A stretch of 19,341 nucleotides of DNA from Thermodesulfobacteriota bacterium (GTDB taxonomy: Bacteria > Desulfobacterota_D > UBA1144 > Nemesobacterales > N074bin48): the NCBI GenBank assembly GCA_041572575.1, contig JBFFSH010000047.1:1-19341 (forward strand). The letters are read 5' to 3'. The position numbers and the translations under genes were made by a program. This document shows positions 1-10,174 of the stretch, piece by piece (within the stretch, counting starts at the first letter, position 1; each line of letters starts with the position of its first letter). The notes beneath the pieces were generated by a model that saw only the letters and a program-made list of their open reading frames with translations, did no database searches and was not told the DNA's origin.

Positions 1-1
1 C

Positions 2-2218
2 CTTAGTGAACTATGGATACATACGAATAATTCTTGCAACCTTCAGTGTACCCACTGCCTGGTTGAATCAGGCCCATCAGGAGATAGGGGACTGGAAACC
101 TCAGTTCTTAAAGACCTCATTGATCAGGCAAAAAAGCTTGGTGTGTATAGATTCTATTTTACTGGTGGAGAGCCGTTTATTAGAAAAGACATATTTGAAC
201 TAATTGATTACATCACAACCGCCCCTTATACAGAACTGATTATACTTACAAATGGAATGTTCTTTAATCATAAAGATAATTTAAAACAGTTTCAAAAAGT
301 AAGCCGCGGCAGGGTTAAGCCACAGATAAGCCTTGACGGCTCGACTGCAAAAGCCAACGATTCTATTAGGGGTAAGGGAACATTTAAAAAAATCATTGAA
401 GGAATTAAATCAGCAGTGAAAAGTGGTCTTGATCCAACTGTAACAACGGTTGTTAATTCTGATAACCTGCATGACATCACCAATATCACAAGACTTATTC
501 ATGGTTTAGGAGTAAATAATCATCATCTTCTGTGGGTGCATCAAAGAGGAAGAATCTCTCAAAATGACAGCATGATAGTACCTACATACAAACTGATAGA
601 AGTACTTAGAGAAACAAAATCAGTTGCAGATGAGCTTGGAATTAAAATAGACAACTTTGAAAGCATAAAGACTAAACTTAAATCCAAAAAGTTTACTAAA
701 CATGACCTAAGCAATGCATGCTGGAAAAGCCTGTGTGTATATTCAGACGGGAAGGTTTATCCATCGGCAGCATTTGCAAATTACCCGGGTCTTAGCGGAG
801 GCAGTATTTTAGATAACACTCTTGAATCCATATGGAAGGAGAGTCCGGTTTTTAATAAGTTTAGAACTGCTACGGTACAAAAAAAGACAAAATGCAATAA
901 TTGCTATATAAAATATATATGCGGTGGAGGAGATATTGAGCATACATATTTCTATACAGCTTCCACTTTTGGTAAAGGTGATCTTGAGGGGCTCGATCCA
1001 TACTCTGAGCTGCATGAATATATCATTAATACTTCACTATATGAGCTTGCACAAGAAAGTGCCCGGAAATTTAACAGGGCCTCTGGATTTGATTCACCCA
1101 TTGTTTACAAATCCATGGGAGAAGAAGTACTGGACTGCAACATTAACGGCAATGGAAATACAAATGGAAACGGCTTATCATCAAATGGCCATCCCAATGG
1201 AATACATAACTACACAGATCTAATAATCGAAGTATCGCATTCAAACTGTGTACTCACCTATGATTTTGATAAATCAAGGGAATCTGTAAGAGATTTTTAT
1301 GGTAAAGCTGCTGAGCAACCTCAGGCAGATCTATGCTGTCCAACATCTTATCCCTTGGATGACACAAGCCATATCCCACAGGATGTAATAGACAGGTTTT
1401 ATGGTTGTGGAAGCCCCATGAACATTGCTGAAATTAAGGAGGGAGAGGTTGTTACAGACCTTGGCTCGGGAGCAGGAATCGACTGTTTTATAGCTTCAAA
1501 AAAAGTTGGTCGGAAGGGAAAGGTGTTTGGAATCGATATGACAGACAATATGCTAAAAGTAGCAAATGAATGTAAATCTGTTGTCTCAAAAAATCTTGGA
1601 TTCAGCAATGTTGAATTTAAAAAAGGATTTTTAGAAGAAATACCTCTTGAAAATGAATCTGTAGACTTAATTACATCGAACTGTGTAATAAATCTCTCAC
1701 CTAATAAAAAAACCGTGTTTTCAGAAATGTGGAGAATACTAAACGATCACGGACGTATAGTGATAAGTGATATTGTATCAGAGAAAGAAGTGCCTCCTCA
1801 TATAATTAATAATCAACAGCTTTGGGGTGAGTGTATAGCAGGCGCATTAACTGAGGAACAGTTTATAAGCTACCTGGAGCAATCGGGATTTTATGGTATA
1901 CAGGTGCTTGCAAAGTCTTATTGGAAAACCATAGAGAGCTATAAGTTCTATTCTGTATCAGTAAGAGGTTATAAATTCAGCAAAAAAGCAGGATGTGTCT
2001 ACATAGGTCAAAAAGCCATATATCATGGTCCTTTCAAGGCAACATTGGACGAAGAAGGTCATATATTCCCAAGGGGTGAAGCAGTAGAGGTATGCACTGA
2101 CACTGCGCGCAAGTTATCACATCACCCGTACAGTTCATTTTTTACTATTACAGATCCAACTGATAAGGTCTCCGATGACTTTACATGCTGCAGTGATTCA
2201 GTTACCGGATGCTGTTAG
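2..2218 (+). CDS. Radical SAM/SPASM - arsenite methyltransferase (ArsM/AS3MT-like) fusion protein, 5' truncated by the window edge
   Basis: The frame of ORF 143..2218 stays open back to base 2 and reads LSELWIHTNNSCNLQCTHCLVESGP..., giving the CxxxCxxC motif at 35-58 that the ORF track missed. It continues with FTGGEP, ISLDG and RGKGTF (rSAM core) and a SPASM-like region (DGKVYPS; CNNCYIKYICGGGD). An N/G-rich linker leads to the ArsM domain: LCCP, YGCGSP, SAM motif DLGSGAGID, GIDMT, SNCVINL, WGECIAGA, an AS3MT-like C-terminal subdomain and a CC...CC tail. Confidence 0.88.
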   Translation, partial: LSELWIHTNNSCNLQCTHCLVESGPSGDRGLETSVLKDLIDQAKKLGVYRFYFTGGEPFIRKDIFELIDYITTAPYTELIILTNGMFFNHKDNLKQFQKVSRGRVKPQISLDGSTAKANDSIRGKGTFKKIIEGIKSAVKSGLDPTVTTVVNSDNLHDITNITRLIHGLGVNNHHLLWVHQRGRISQNDSMIVPTYKLIEVLRETKSVADELGIKIDNFESIKTKLKSKKFTKHDLSNACWKSLCVYSDGKVYPSAAFANYPGLSGGSILDNTLESIWKESPVFNKFRTATVQKKTKCNNCYIKYICGGGDIEHTYFYTASTFGKGDLEGLDPYSELHEYIINTSLYELAQESARKFNRASGFDSPIVYKSMGEEVLDCNINGNGNTNGNGLSSNGHPNGIHNYTDLIIEVSHSNCVLTYDFDKSRESVRDFYGKAAEQPQADLCCPTSYPLDDTSHIPQDVIDRFYGCGSPMNIAEIKEGEVVTDLGSGAGIDCFIASKKVGRKGKVFGIDMTDNMLKVANECKSVVSKNLGFSNVEFKKGFLEEIPLENESVDLITSNCVINLSPNKKTVFSEMWRILNDHGRIVISDIVSEKEVPPHIINNQQLWGECIAGALTEEQFISYLEQSGFYGIQVLAKSYWKTIESYKFYSVSVRGYKFSKKAGCVYIGQKAIYHGPFKATLDEEGHIFPRGEAVEVCTDTARKLSHHPYSSFFTITDPTDKVSDDFTCCSDSVTGCC

Positions 2219-2228
2219 TGGTCTGTAA

Positions 2229-2840
2229 ATGAAAAGACACGTTAATCATCTGATTATTTTTTTAAAATATCCACAAATTGGTAAGGTTAAGACCAGGCTT
2301 GCAAAAGATATTGGAGATGTTAAAGCCCTTAATATATATAAACTTCTCGTATCGAGTACCTTAAATAAGGTTCAAAGTACTAGCTTTGATATTTCTATTT
2401 ATTACACACCAAAAGATAAAGACAAAGAAGTACGAAAGTTTATAGATTTTAATGATGTAAATTATTATTCACAAACCGGAAACAATTTAGGCGCTAGAAT
2501 GTTAAATGCCTTCAGTGAATCTTTTACAGCCGGTTATAAGAAAACAATTATAATCGGAACAGATTGTCCTGATATTAATTACAATACCATCTCAGACACT
2601 TTTAATTTGCTGAATAATCACGATTTAGTATTAGGTCCGGCTACTGATGGTGGATATTATCTAATTGGACTTTGTAAAATCAGCATAGAATTATTTAATA
2701 ATATTGAATGGAGTAGTGATAAAGTACTTAAAAAAACTCTAAACATTGCAAATAAGCTCAATTTTAACTACAAATTGCTAGATTTCAGAGCAGATATTGA
2801 TACAATTGCAGATTTAAACAACCATAAATATCTGTTTTAG
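2229..2840 (+). CDS. TIGR04282/DUF2064-family (CofC-like) transferase, arsenosugar-biosynthesis-associated glycosyltransferase
   Basis: Family motifs IFLKYPQIGKVKTRLA, QTGNNLGARM, IIGTDCP, LGPATDGGYYLIG, IEWS and DIDT..DL. It starts 10 bp after the stop of the rSAM-ArsM gene. Confidence 0.88.
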   Translation: MKRHVNHLIIFLKYPQIGKVKTRLAKDIGDVKALNIYKLLVSSTLNKVQSTSFDISIYYTPKDKDKEVRKFIDFNDVNYYSQTGNNLGARMLNAFSESFTAGYKKTIIIGTDCPDINYNTISDTFNLLNNHDLVLGPATDGGYYLIGLCKISIELFNNIEWSSDKVLKKTLNIANKLNFNYKLLDFRADIDTIADLNNHKYLF

Positions 2841-2887
2841 ATACAATCCTGAAACCTTCCTCTATTATATGCATCCTAGTTATTAGA

Positions 2888-2917
2888 TTGATAGTTAATA
2901 TGAATATTAATTATCAA
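2888..2917. promoter_or_regulatory. 14-2-14 inverted repeat (one mismatch), candidate operator or hairpin
   Basis: ttgatagttaatat-ga-atattaattatcaa, ending 35 bp upstream of the ATG at 2953 and ahead of a strong RBS (gaggaggtg). Confidence 0.5.
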
Positions 2918-2952
2918 AAACGTAATAACTCTATATGAGGAGGTGAAAATAT

Positions 2953-3339
2953 ATGAGATTTTTTAGTATATTTAGTGTTTTTGCAATAGGTGCAGTAATG
3001 TTTATATCATCAGCAACTGCAGGTGATATGAAAATGAATGAATCCACAGACATTTCTGTTACCGGAAGAGTAGTAGACCCTGCTTGTTACATAAAGGCAG
3101 GCATGAAAGGCGCTGATCACAGAGTATGTGCTCAGGCATGTGCCAAGGCAGGCCAGGCTTTTGGAATACTGGATGAGACAAACGGCGTTCTCTACCAGGT
3201 TTTAGCAACAGGAATGATGAAAGATCCTAACGAAGGACTTATGGATCATGCAGAAGAAATTGTAACAGTTGAAGGTAAACTTTTCGAAAAAGACGGTATG
3301 AAAGGTATCGTTCCAACCAAGGTAAAAAAAGGAAGTTAA
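2953..3339 (+). CDS. Secreted hypothetical protein, Cys/His/Met-rich, possibly metal-binding
   Basis: Strong RBS GAGGAGGTG and a signal peptide (MRFFSIFSVFAIGAVMFISSATA|G). Contains the motif DPACY...HRVCAQAC...G and 9 Met in 128 aa. Confidence 0.75.
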   Translation: MRFFSIFSVFAIGAVMFISSATAGDMKMNESTDISVTGRVVDPACYIKAGMKGADHRVCAQACAKAGQAFGILDETNGVLYQVLATGMMKDPNEGLMDHAEEIVTVEGKLFEKDGMKGIVPTKVKKGS

Positions 3340-3349
3340 TCTATATTTT

Positions 3350-3386
3350 AAGGAAGCATGAAAAATCATGCTTCCTTTTCCTTTTT
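3350..3386 (+). terminator. Rho-independent terminator
   Basis: Perfect 12-bp stem aaggaagcatga-aaaa-tcatgcttcctt followed by a T-rich tail (ttccttttt), 10 bp after the stop at 3339. Confidence 0.85.
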
Positions 3387-3460
3387 CTTGCTATCTAATA
3401 ATTTATACTTATCATATTTACTGATTTAAATTCAAAAATACTGATTAATTTTATGAAAAT

Positions 3461-4006
3461 ATGAATAGATACTTCCAAATTACAATGCTTCTATGTGCTT
3501 TTTTTATTTTTGCGTGTGAACAAAAGGTGATCACATCTGAAGAAACCCCTCAGAATACTGAAACACAAGAGAAAGAAGAATTAAAAACAGCCTATAATTT
3601 CAAATTAGAAAATTTGGATGGGTCAGGCACTGTTGAGTTAAGTGATTTTAAAGATAAACCTGTGATAGTGAATTTCTGGGCTTCATGGTGTGCACCATGC
3701 AGAGAAGAGATGCCGTTTTTACAAAAAACCTGGGAAGAACATAAGGACAAAGGGCTTGTTTTTATTGGAATAGATGTGATAGATGATACGGCAAGCGCTA
3801 AAGAATTTTTAGATTCTTTTAATATTAATTATTTAAACTTAAACGACAGCAAAGGTAAAACATCAAGCAAGTATAGTGTAATTGCTCTTCCTGCGACATT
3901 CTTTATTAATAGAAAAGGGAAGATTGTAAAACAAAATTACGGTCCATTCTTAGGTGAGAGCGGAGAAAAATTATTTAACAAATATTTAGAGGAAATACTT
4001 AATTGA
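3461..4006 (+). CDS. TlpA/ResA-family thiol-disulfide oxidoreductase, probable lipoprotein
   Basis: VNFWASWCAPCREEMP active site and LPATFFIN cis-Pro loop. The N-terminal hydrophobic stretch ends in a lipobox-like IFA|C. Confidence 0.9.
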   Translation: MNRYFQITMLLCAFFIFACEQKVITSEETPQNTETQEKEELKTAYNFKLENLDGSGTVELSDFKDKPVIVNFWASWCAPCREEMPFLQKTWEEHKDKGLVFIGIDVIDDTASAKEFLDSFNINYLNLNDSKGKTSSKYSVIALPATFFINRKGKIVKQNYGPFLGESGEKLFNKYLEEILN

Positions 4007-4758
4007 GCGGAGCCGAAGTACAGGTAAGCTGGGTATTTGCTTTCTTGGCAGGAGTAGTATCATTCATCTCTCCATGTGTTTTACCATTAATCCCAGGATA
4101 CATATCACTTGTAACTAAATTATCGTTTGACGAGCTTACTGAGAAAAAAGCTTCTAATACACTAAAAAAAGTATTAATTCCAAGTATATTTTTTGTACTT
4201 GGATTTTCCTTTCTTTTTGTGACACTTGGCGCTTCAGCAACTTTTTTAGGTGGTTTTCTACAACAAAATAAGTTCCTTCTACTCAAAATATCAGGTGTAG
4301 TAATTATCATATTCTCTCTTTTCGTGCTGGAACTAATTAAAATACCACAACTTTACGGTGAAAAGCGTTTAGAAATAAAAGATAGTAATTTAAACTACTT
4401 AGGGCCATTTCTTCTTGGGATTGCCTTTGGTTTTGGATGGACACCGTGCGTAGGTCCTATTCTTGCTTCAATTTTGCTTTATGCAAGCACTGCAGAGGGA
4501 GCCTCAGAGGGTGCCATATTGTTGTTTATATATTCCTTGGGTTTAGGGCTTCCTTTTATCATTACGGGTCTTGCTCTTACAAAGGCATTATCTGCATTTT
4601 CTTGGATAAAAAGAAACTATGGAATATATAAATATGTTACTGGGGGCGCCTTGATGATTATTGGAATCTTAATGGTCACAAATACACTTTTTTACCTAAA
4701 TATTTATGGCCAAAAGATACTAGACTCTCTTGGACTCGATTTTTGGAAATCCTTTTAA
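4003..4758 (+). CDS. ccdA: Cytochrome c biogenesis / thiol-disulfide membrane transporter CcdA
   Basis: AFLAGVVSFISPCVLPLIPGY and GWTPCVGPIL catalytic Cys motifs, with about six hydrophobic segments. The TTG start overlaps the upstream TGA (TTGA). Confidence 0.92.
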   Translation: MSGAEVQVSWVFAFLAGVVSFISPCVLPLIPGYISLVTKLSFDELTEKKASNTLKKVLIPSIFFVLGFSFLFVTLGASATFLGGFLQQNKFLLLKISGVVIIIFSLFVLELIKIPQLYGEKRLEIKDSNLNYLGPFLLGIAFGFGWTPCVGPILASILLYASTAEGASEGAILLFIYSLGLGLPFIITGLALTKALSAFSWIKRNYGIYKYVTGGALMIIGILMVTNTLFYLNIYGQKILDSLGLDFWKSF

Positions 4759-4981
4759 TAGAATAAAAATAATGAATATTTAATTAGTTACTTCAAGTTA
4801 TAGTCTTAACTCCCTCTAATGTTTTAATTCTATTATATGTTATTCTAATGAACAACAAATATTTCAGCTGTTGAATTTTTTTATTAAAAATAATTGAAAC
4901 TAATGCATTAATCATGTAACTATATAGCTTTTATTTTAATACAGTATTAAAAGATATATTAATTCTGGGATATATTAGTAA

Positions 4982-6268
4982 ATGGATAAAATGAAGGAAG
5001 CAGCGCTACAGTATCATAGTTCTGACCCAAAAGGTAAAACCGGAATACATACGACCAAACCATGCGATACTCAGTGGGACTTATCACTGGCATATTCTCC
5101 CGGTGTTGCAGAGCCATGCAGAGAGATAGAACAGACTCCAGACCTTGTTTATGACTACACAAACAGAGGAAATCTTGTAGCTGTTATTAGTAACGGGACG
5201 GCAGTTCTTGGTCTTGGTAATATAGGTGCTCTTGCCGGCAAACCCGTAATGGAAGGTAAAAGCGTACTATTTAAAAAATTTGCTGATATTGATGCATTTG
5301 ATTTAGAACTAAATACCGAAGACCCAGACGAAATTATAAAAACAGTAAAACTGCTTGAGCCCACATTTGGGGGAATTAATCTAGAAGATATAAAGGCTCC
5401 AGAATGTTTTTATATCGAAGAAGAACTTAAAAAAATAATGAATATTCCTGTCTTCCACGATGATCAGCATGGCACCGCTATAATATCAGGTGCAGGTCTG
5501 ATAAATGCCTGTGAAATAGGCAATAAAGATATTGCAGACGTACGAATTACTATAAATGGAGCTGGAGCTTCTGCTATTGCTTGTGGCGAGTTTTTTATAC
5601 AAATGGGCGCCAGAAGAGAAAACATGATATTGTGTGATAGCAGGGGTGTTATATATAAAGGCAGAGAAGAAGGAATTAATGAACAAAAAGAACGTTTTAT
5701 GGTAGAGACGAATTTGCGTACCTTAGAAGATGCAATGAAAGGTGCAGATGTATTCGTTGGACTCTCTGTTGGCGGCAGAGTTAGCAAGGAAATGGTAAAG
5801 TCTATGGCTGACAATCCAATAATCTTTGCAATGGCTAATCCTGATCCCGAAATAACCTATGAAGATGCTATGGATGCAAGACAGGACATTATAATTGCAA
5901 CAGGTAGATCGGATTATCCTAACCAGGTTAATAATGTGCTTGGTTTTCCATTTATCTTCAGAGGAGCTCTAGACGTTAGAGCAAAAACCATTAATGAAGA
6001 AATGAAAGTAGCAGCTGCTCATGCGCTTGCTGATCTTGCAAAAAAGGGTGCCGATGAATCTGTTGCAAAGGCATATGGCAAATCCCATTTTGAATTTGGC
6101 CCCAAATACATAGTCCCCAAACCATTTGACCCAAGAGTCCTTCTATTCGAGTCTTATGCTGTAGCAGAAGCTGCAATAAAATCAGGAGTTGCAAGAAAGG
6201 AATTTGATTTGTCCGGATACAAACAAAGACTTGAGCAAAAAGTAATTCAGCTCTTAGAAGATGACTAA
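4982..6268 (+). CDS. NAD(P)-dependent malic enzyme, MaeB-type ME domain without the PTA domain
   Basis: Motifs [77 protein letters not shown] and PKPFDPR; 428 aa. Confidence 0.93.
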
Positions 6269-9631: not shown

Positions 9632-10174
9632 ATGAAATATATCCCTAAAATACTGCAAATATCCACATTTTTACTCATAGGATGTTTTATAGCTATACTA
9701 GCTATTTCTATTCTCGGTAACAAAGATAATAAACCCCGAATATCTCCGTTGATTGGTAAAAACTTTCCAAACCATGATATAGAGCTTTTTAGTGGAGATA
9801 AAATTAATATAGATAAATTAAAGGGAAATACTTTACTCATAAATTTTTGGGCATCTTGGTGCAATCCATGTAAAGAAGAATTTCCAGCCTTAGAAGCTTC
9901 GTGGTTAAAGCATAAGAACAACAACGTTATATTCCTTGGTATAAATATTTTAGATGACAAGGATCAAGCTGAGCATTATCTCCAACAATATAAGAGTAAC
10001 TATCCAAATGGTGTTGATATAGACGGAAATATTGCAGTAGATTTAGGCATTGGCGGAGTGCCCGAAACATTTTTTGTTAATGATAAAGGTATTATAGTAG
10101 AAAAATATGTAGGACCACTAACTGAAGAAATAATAGATTTCTATATTAACAAAACAAAGTTATCAAATGGCTAA
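9632..10174 (+). CDS. TlpA/CcmG(DsbE)-like membrane-anchored thioredoxin
   Basis: N-terminal TM anchor, INFWASWCNPCKEE and GVPETFFV (CcmG-like). Overlaps the downstream ccmH. Confidence 0.88.
   Translation: MKYIPKILQISTFLLIGCFIAILAISILGNKDNKPRISPLIGKNFPNHDIELFSGDKINIDKLKGNTLLINFWASWCNPCKEEFPALEASWLKHKNNNVIFLGINILDDKDQAEHYLQQYKSNYPNGVDIDGNIAVDLGIGGVPETFFVNDKGIIVEKYVGPLTEEIIDFYINKTKLSNG

Follow-up and report, generated by a model that had tools for sequence, protein, structure and literature searches.

A single-chain fusion of a SPASM-type radical SAM module and an ArsM-type methyltransferase as a candidate stand-in for the ArsM and ArsS pair

A 19,341-nucleotide (nt) stretch of DNA from a Thermodesulfobacteriota bacterium, here called the window, was analysed. 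It is contig C47 of a 2.6-Mb genome that is 96% complete. Its first gene encodes a radical S-adenosylmethionine (SAM) module fused to an ArsM-type arsenite methyltransferase domain, and a gene of the TIGR04282 family follows. The fusion probably represents a second, undescribed route to carbon-arsenic (C-As) compounds. We consider it somewhat better than an even bet (about 0.55) that the protein does in one chain what the ArsM and ArsS pair does, feeding an arsenosugar or arsenolipid pathway. New here are the mutual exclusion of fusion and ArsS within one order together with their shared chromosomal slot, a tree of the ArsM domains, the finding that SPASM ligands were lost step by step, and the ArsS genomes without ArsM. 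No description of the fusion was found in the open literature, although supplements may list such homologues.

Exchange of the fusion with ArsS within the order

The distribution of the fusion and of ArsS was compared in 61 genomes of the order. ArsS was found in 41 genomes and the fusion in 11 (10 intact and 1 broken); none carried both and 9 carried neither. The broken fusion belongs to G023, whose TIGR04282 gene is broken too. TIGR04282 exceeded its cut-off in 10 of 10 genomes with an intact fusion, in 39 of the 41 with ArsS and in 0 of the 9 with neither, so that all 49 such genomes (49/49) carried ArsS or the fusion. Fisher tests overstate such associations, the genomes being related, and carry no weight here. 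A profile search of the contigs of the window's own genome found no ArsS. Moreover, the two systems occupy a common slot, in which a divergent HAD gene, often arsR, and then either the fusion or arsM-TIGR04169-arsS stand before TIGR04282, with TlpA/CcdA or Pst/PiT genes downstream. The TlpA/CcdA pair of the window also lies 3′ of TIGR04282 in the ArsS loci L113 and L118, and was used as a synteny marker for the slot. An earlier note on this DNA had proposed a link to the ArsS/TIGR04282 cassette; this link held and became stronger through the exclusion of ArsS and the common slot. Judged from the sequences, the fusion and ArsS appear to have been exchanged in place, with the direction of the swap not established. 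Such a swap suggests a product identical or closely similar to that of ArsS.

The ArsM domains bear on the same exchange. Stand-alone ArsMs that are 58-69% identical to the fused domain were present in 14 ArsS genomes and adjoined arsS in 14 of 14. In a 58-row tree, 12 of the 14 formed one clade (98/97) nested in the fusion clade of the order (99/97), and the 12 were placed, weakly, as sister to the window's protein (86/63). A 134-row quick tree gave the same nesting.

A separate case was seen in G059, a genome 85% complete, where a 336-amino-acid (aa) ArsM (L097/L128:5612-6619) has a fusion-like N-terminus that jumps to the HSNC region, its Cys being changed. This gene appears to have lost the entire radical module in frame, though it could be an assembly artefact. 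Neither ArsS nor TIGR04282 was found in G059.

Layout and integrity of the fusion protein

The stop-free frame of the window (nt 2-2218, 738 aa) is open at its 5′ end, where the contig edge cuts the gene. The end of C87, an overlapping contig of the same genome, matches the window start over 141 identical bases; it adds 110 residues and an in-frame start (codon at 9820 on G000:C87), giving an 848-aa protein. P0274, a public protein of 848 aa that occurs on 45 contigs, matches both gene pieces without a difference. From domain matches, the protein order is PqqD-like, radical SAM, SPASM-like, cysteine tail and ArsM. Pfam cut-offs were exceeded by Radical_SAM (aa 9-165), SPASM (aa 240-302) and Methyltransf_31 (aa 478-626), in the numbering of the 738-aa part, which is used for residues throughout. 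The N-terminal 110 aa encoded on C87 matched PqqD only weakly (PF05402, E 3e-4, 21.5 bits, below the cut-off of 23.4); PqqD, the peptide recognition element (RRE) family PF05402, was above cut-off in the relatives P0181 and P0191. The features are as follows.

2..718, + strand: radical SAM core (CxxxCxxC at 35-58, GGEP motif); PF04055 76 bits; residues 111-349 of the 848-aa protein
719..1006, + strand: degenerate SPASM domain; PF13186 31.5 bits, alignment column counts, comparison with CteB/PqqE/anSME entries
1007..1264, + strand: tail of the radical SAM module with Cys379 (nt 1136), HSNC Cys416 (nt 1247) and an Asn/Gly-rich spacer; homologue column counts
1265..2218, + strand: ArsM/AS3MT-type arsenite methyltransferase domain, with a long C-terminal extension as in arsenosugar-type ArsM and a terminal Cys-Cys; CmArsM alignment
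2229..2840, + strand: TIGR04282/DUF2064 CofC-like nucleotidyl- or sugar-transferase; TIGR04282, PF09837, PDB 3CGX E 6e-30
3461..4758, + strand: TlpA/ResA-like thioredoxin and CcdA/DsbD membrane protein; Pfam and NCBIfam

The single uninterrupted frame and the cysteine codons that the earlier note had listed (CxxxCxxC at 35/47/56, CC at 1334/1337, Cys at 1406, 1682 and 1832) were all recovered. Its coordinates were right throughout; its gene was incomplete, the PqqD-like N-terminus lying on C87 outside the window. The spacer at window 1139-1210, between the two tail cysteines, is Asn/Gly-rich and repetitive, and is longer than in most homologues.

In a homologue search with the fusion, 2095 of 7999 candidates scored E 1e-50 or better. 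Of the best 120 of these, all but a few span 98-100% of the query at 52-100% identity. Among the matches listed, the closest named relatives carry the labels Dadabacteria or Thermodesulfobacteriota. Both domains were present in order in 80 of 80 related genome loci, from Scalinduaceae, Nitrospirota, Nitrospinota, Acidobacteriota, Omnitrophota, Gemmatimonadota, Planctomycetota and others. The joining of both enzymes in one chain, as first noticed, is thus conserved in homologues of many phyla. The frame starts at a contig edge, as it might in an assembly chimera of two genes, but that explanation has next to no chance of being right: the identical 848-aa protein recurs on 45 contigs, and one 13.9-kb contig covers window 1-4800 without joints, although its run is possibly the source of the window DNA. 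Absence of the fusion from homologues had been named in advance as what would speak for a chimera; its presence in 80/80 loci refutes the chimera. Some genomes hold two fusion copies (G047 on C102 and C112; L032 and L058).

The methyltransferase domain was compared with CmArsM (PDB 4KW7/4FR0). The alignment is full-length (E 2e-41, ~290 residues), and C446, C469, C561 and C611, hand-counted from it, align to CmArsM C44, C72, C174 and C224. In the accessible part of PMC5552862, an ArsM is recognised by at least three of four cysteines equivalent to these on a class I SAM-binding fold. All four were aligned here (4/4), in agreement with the first report that every catalytic-position cysteine of ArsM/AS3MT is retained, and all are invariant in 89/89 close homologues. 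The domain scored 243 bits with NF008823 (cut-off 263, a near miss) and 165 bits with NF038099 (cut-off 400, a wide miss), and from the alignment it is ArsM-type by its residues, not by membership in a hidden Markov model (HMM) family. The terminal CC was present in 82/89 close homologues. Stand-alone ArsMs end in CC too, indicating that it belongs to ArsM, and an ArsL-like tail was rejected as its explanation. TlpA/CcdA was also considered as the reductant of ArsM and judged unlikely, since both appear to be exported.

The radical SAM part scored 59.5 bits with the ArsS model TIGR04167 (cut-off 300) and matched model positions 8-147 only. The closest NCBIfam models were NirJ2, AhbD, WgkB and StsB at 125-135 bits, far below their cut-offs; among the 25 best of 105 matches, no model exceeded its cut-off on this module. 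Going by these profiles, its ancestry is in the PqqE/NirJ/AhbD SPASM group. A feature search of the ESM Atlas gave generic radical SAM/SPASM clusters and nothing more specific. The likeness of the CTHCLVESGP segment to the ArsS cluster motif, pointed out earlier, is real and holds at the family level (hhalign, 23% identity). The earlier claim that this enzyme is not of the ArsS C-terminal type was confirmed by its YPS hairpin and HSNC tail.

Alignment columns were counted over 89 close and 46 distant homologue rows, with ligand positions assigned by sequence analogy. The YPC cysteine position holds Ser or Ala in 89/89 close rows (Ser255 in this protein) and the GGGC cysteine position holds Asp in 89/89 (Asp311), indicating that the first auxiliary cluster was lost or rebuilt. 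The triad of the second cluster, CxxCx5C (298/301/307), is kept here and in ~72/89 close rows and absent in ~17/89; Ser335 replaces the last (fourth) ligand of this cluster in our protein. The two-auxiliary-cluster cysteine set of SPASM peptide maturases is therefore incomplete. The SPASM-like domain of the first report stands by its PF13186 score above cut-off, and is degenerate rather than a working two-cluster SPASM. Distant relatives have all of the SPASM cysteines, and the tail in which they end reads HCxC. C245 was found in 89/89 close and 7/46 distant rows, C379 in 86/89 and 41/46, and C416 of the HSNC motif in 89/89 and 43/46; a conserved set of His, Trp, Arg and Asp also lies in the module. 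Because unfused forms end just after C416 and stand-alone ArsMs lack it, C416 is part of the radical module. ArsS ends in a three-cysteine tail. According to the accessible parts of bioRxiv 2024.02.01.577332 and bioRxiv 2026.04.29.721666, the tail of ArsL binds As(III). By analogy, we infer that C379 and C416 are candidate arsenic-binding thiols.

Five relatives (P0162, P0306, P0308, P0175 and P0251) end one residue before the tail cysteine position, which is a lead to a possible unrecognised selenocysteine. A stop at the C416 position was found in 0/125 motif matches in the fetched loci.

Partner genes, family variants and context across phyla

The TIGR04282 gene starts with ATG at 2229, 10 bp past the fusion stop, and scored 210.5 bits against a cut-off of 134, which bears out its first identification. 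Elsewhere in the window's genome, C36 carries DUF547 together with a TIGR04283-like gene (172.9 bits, cut-off 182); other sites have PiT, DUF3179, and ArsC next to pst genes. Among neighbours in the 80 loci, PiT was counted 33 times, TIGR04282 28, a MerA-like oxidoreductase 22, DedA/VTT 21, DUF547 21, TIGR04283 17, ArsC 6 and ArsS 0. Fifty of these 80, picked for length and spread, were searched genome-wide (3/50 were already in the order set), and TIGR04282 was found in 48 (42 above cut-off). The phylum of G098, which is Acidobacteriota going by the title of L053, was sampled with 151 genomes: 58 had TIGR04282 and 33 had ArsS, of which 32 had TIGR04282; these tallies include the unpublished genomes G133, G158 and G255, and are 55 and 32 without them. 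The radical SAM family of the fusion occurred in 4/151, 0 with ArsS and 3 with TIGR04282, with G164 holding an unfused form alone. ArsS was present in 32/55 TIGR04282 genomes of this sample without the fusion, compared with 5 of the 50 fusion genomes searched across phyla.

A 50%-cluster search uncovered further architectures: reverse-order fusions to a different ArsM clade (P0160, P0162 and P0175), a triple fusion with TIGR04283 (P0142), true ArsS-ArsM fusions (P0163 and P0247), forms with a C-terminal DUF5714, TusA fusions and unfused forms. Fusions of 1000-1080 aa (P0133, P0144, P0145, P0147, P0154 and similar ones) have an extra C-terminal region, which in P0133 matches DUF5714; the extra regions also match part of the selenoprotein MbdU model, and many of these proteins have Asn at the first ArsM cysteine position. 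TusA sulfur-carrier domains are fused to the same radical SAM module in place of ArsM in P0181 and P0191, and in L188 and L192; TIGR04282 and a phosphonate-binding protein lie nearby in L192. At 22 loci within L138-L171 a full-SPASM fusion is followed by a 493-aa B12-binding radical SAM gene, in some with a divergent NifA-like sigma-54 activator.

Other parts of the window were also inspected. A 128-aa exported protein at 2953-3339 shows the pattern CxxxG...HxxCxxxC; no family of Pfam or NCBIfam exceeded its cut-off on it, and a strong terminator-like hairpin lies 3′ of it at 3350-3377. The contig end (19202-19341) is a repeat that recurs, at 84-100% identity, on the ends of at least 8 other contigs; it is probably a mobile element. 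Upstream, on the minus strand of C87, two acidic, cysteine-rich, secreted-looking repeat proteins (L001:6578-7531 and 3372-4187) flank a GMC oxidoreductase pair. Promoter-like sites in window 2200-5000 were at chance level (13 versus 13.5). Contigs from RNA libraries were not accepted as a sign of transcription, because those of X17 and X19 covered scattered 151-356 nt pieces and X15 covered everything as evenly as DNA would. Habitat records for sediment, soil and estuary carry a flag as potential sources of the window DNA.

Proposed function, rival explanations and known systems

By inference from CmArsM, the ArsM domain would bind As(III) on its cysteines and methylate it with SAM to methylarsenite, MAs(III), and dimethylarsenite, DMAs(III). 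If the swap with ArsS is a guide, the methylarsenical would then move to the cysteine tail of the radical module (C379, C416, perhaps C245), where the [4Fe-4S] cluster would cleave a second SAM and the 5′-deoxyadenosyl radical would add to arsenic. The predicted product is DDMAA (5′-deoxy-5′-dimethylarsinoyl-adenosine) or a close analogue. ArsS converts DMAs(III) to DDMAA by redox-neutral chemistry, according to the accessible part of PMC13598754. The reaction may be redox-neutral here as well, which would explain why the auxiliary clusters were dispensable. More speculatively, TIGR04282, with the TIGR04283-like family 2 glycosyltransferase (GT2) and DUF547 of C36 and DedA/GT-C membrane proteins, could activate the ribose and transfer it to an acceptor, either glycerol-phosphate or a lipid. 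As for the PqqD-like domain, it was probably inherited as a structural part, or it docks the protein's own tail. A bolder and rather unlikely proposal is that a peptide-maturase scaffold was turned into a third class of C-As radical enzyme, whose PqqD-like domain holds its own Cys (in some relatives selenocysteine) tail as a tethered arsenic carrier swinging between the ArsM site, where it is loaded, and the radical site; the end product would be an undescribed arsenic-containing membrane glycolipid or surface glycan, made across many phyla by bacteria of sediment and groundwater and by anammox bacteria.

Several results weigh against a stand-in for ArsM and ArsS. The strongest is that 23/41 ArsS genomes had no ArsM match at E 1e-40, and 5/5 of those checked scored at most 77 bits with NF008823; the cassette can thus do without its own methylase. 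These genomes (G002, G008, G012, G014, G024 and 18 others) are small, 1.2-2.4 Mb, and keep arsS and TIGR04282. Import of methylated arsenic is one possible explanation; another is that ArsS acts on a different substrate. A tree with all fused ArsMs together was not rejected by the approximately unbiased (AU) test (p 0.30), and the swap within the order may be a single event. Across phyla, 5/50 fusion genomes also retain ArsS, and 23/58 Acidobacteriota TIGR04282 genomes have neither ArsS nor the fusion, so that the rule is looser outside the order. Eight complete unfused full-SPASM genes were found in 80 metagenome loci, with TIGR04282 adjoining in 7/8 and no arsM in their loci; lipid genes were among their neighbours (CDP-alcohol phosphatidyltransferase at 2 loci, the lysylphosphatidylglycerol (LPG)-synthase membrane domain at 3 and GDPD at 2). 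The TIGR04282 link therefore goes with the radical module. The metagenome loci also held one clade of 23 full-SPASM fusions, of which 22/23 have a B12 radical SAM gene as the next gene; TIGR04282 gave no hit in these loci, so that several products may come from the family. Moreover, TIGR04282/04283 owe their "arsenosugar" names to association-based annotation, and no paper testing their function was found in the literature.

These results were weighed against other readings. The enzyme might form or tailor a C-As bond and give a product other than that of ArsS, through another SAM fragment, another acceptor or a later arsenosugar step. Its NirJ2-, AhbD-, WgkB- and StsB-like ancestry, its own conserved His/Trp/Arg/Asp pocket residues, the 5/50 genomes that keep both enzymes and the subfamilies with DUF5714, TusA or a B12 radical SAM partner would fit; however, the full exclusion with ArsS in 61 genomes, with the same slot and TIGR04282 partner, is easiest explained by one product, and we regard a different one as unlikely. 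Slightly more doubtful still is a non-arsenic role, in which radical SAM and TIGR04282/04283 would serve a general envelope sugar or lipid modification with sulfur, selenium or another group on the cysteine tail, while the ArsM-type domain methylates the substrate or only detoxifies arsenic. The ArsS genomes without a close ArsM, the unfused relatives beside TIGR04282 and lipid genes, the TusA fusions and the occurrence of rhodaneses agree with it. It is opposed by the invariance of the four ArsM cysteines, by the ArsM fusion having arisen in two orientations, and by the arsR, arsC and phosphate/arsenate-type transporter genes that recur nearby; the ArsM-less genomes, for their part, could import methylarsenicals.

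A maturase of peptides that are made on ribosomes and modified after translation (RiPPs) would have the same layout of RRE (here PqqD-like), radical SAM and SPASM, and the best solved-structure matches of unfused relatives are CteB-type 5WGG, PqqE and SkfB. Its PqqD-like domain would bind a precursor peptide, which the radical SAM domain would cross-link or arsenylate. But the ligands of auxiliary cluster I are lost in the clade and the neighbours are sugar and lipid genes. No precursor peptide across phyla was found among 5473 short + strand open reading frames (ORFs) from the 80 loci, a search in which fast-evolving or distant peptides would be missed; the 25 largest short-ORF clusters were restricted to Scalindua-group loci, except for one Omnitrophota locus. 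We hold this role to be quite improbable.

Two C-As bond-forming radical SAM enzymes, ArsS and ArsL, are described in the accessible parts of PMC13598754 and bioRxiv 2024.02.01.577332. If the fusion does replace ArsM and ArsS, an unrelated SPASM-type enzyme swapping with ArsS would be the third. Complex organoarsenic synthesis would then extend to Dadabacteria-like bacteria, marine anammox Scalindua, Nitrospirota, Acidobacteriota and others, in which surveys would count the gene simply as arsM. With both steps in one polypeptide, the idea could be tested with a single expression construct, and the shared partners give a handle on the steps beyond the adenosyl-arsenical.

The protein can be set beside four known systems. 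It shares fold ancestry and domain order with the RRE-radical SAM-SPASM maturases (PqqE, SkfB, CteB-type) and AhbD/NirJ, and differs from them in NCBIfam scores far below cut-off, in lost auxiliary ligands and in having no conserved precursor peptide found. Like ArsL with its ArsM in arsinothricin synthesis (NF040542, NF040538), it pairs a radical SAM enzyme with ArsM, and ArsL also has a cysteine tail in the accessible accounts of it; however, the 25 best of 105 matches to NCBIfam do not include ArsL, NF040538 gave 217 of 500 bits, and the RCCLKC tail is absent from the fusion translation. CmArsM/AS3MT (PDB 4KW7, 4FR0, 8XT7) aligns over its full length with C44/C72/C174/C224 matched, whereas the domain here stands behind ~530 residues of radical SAM module and has CC at the first position. 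The ArsM and ArsS pair of oxo-arsenosugar synthesis (NF038099 and TIGR04167) differs in its radical enzyme, to which the fusion has 23% profile identity and 59.5 of the 300 bits, and in having no PqqD-like domain, degenerate SPASM or fused ArsM; the fusion has no TIGR04169 neighbour, and it has YPS and HSNC in place of the YDCDFNQ hairpin and HCxGC...SSC tail that are invariant in 12 ArsS rows. On the other hand, both combine an ArsM-type methylase with a CxxxCxHC radical SAM enzyme ending in a cysteine tail. The fusion also shows the ArsS-type co-occurrence with TIGR04282/04283 and ArsM, shares the partners TIGR04282, TIGR04283 and DUF547, and occupies the same chromosomal slot in the order.

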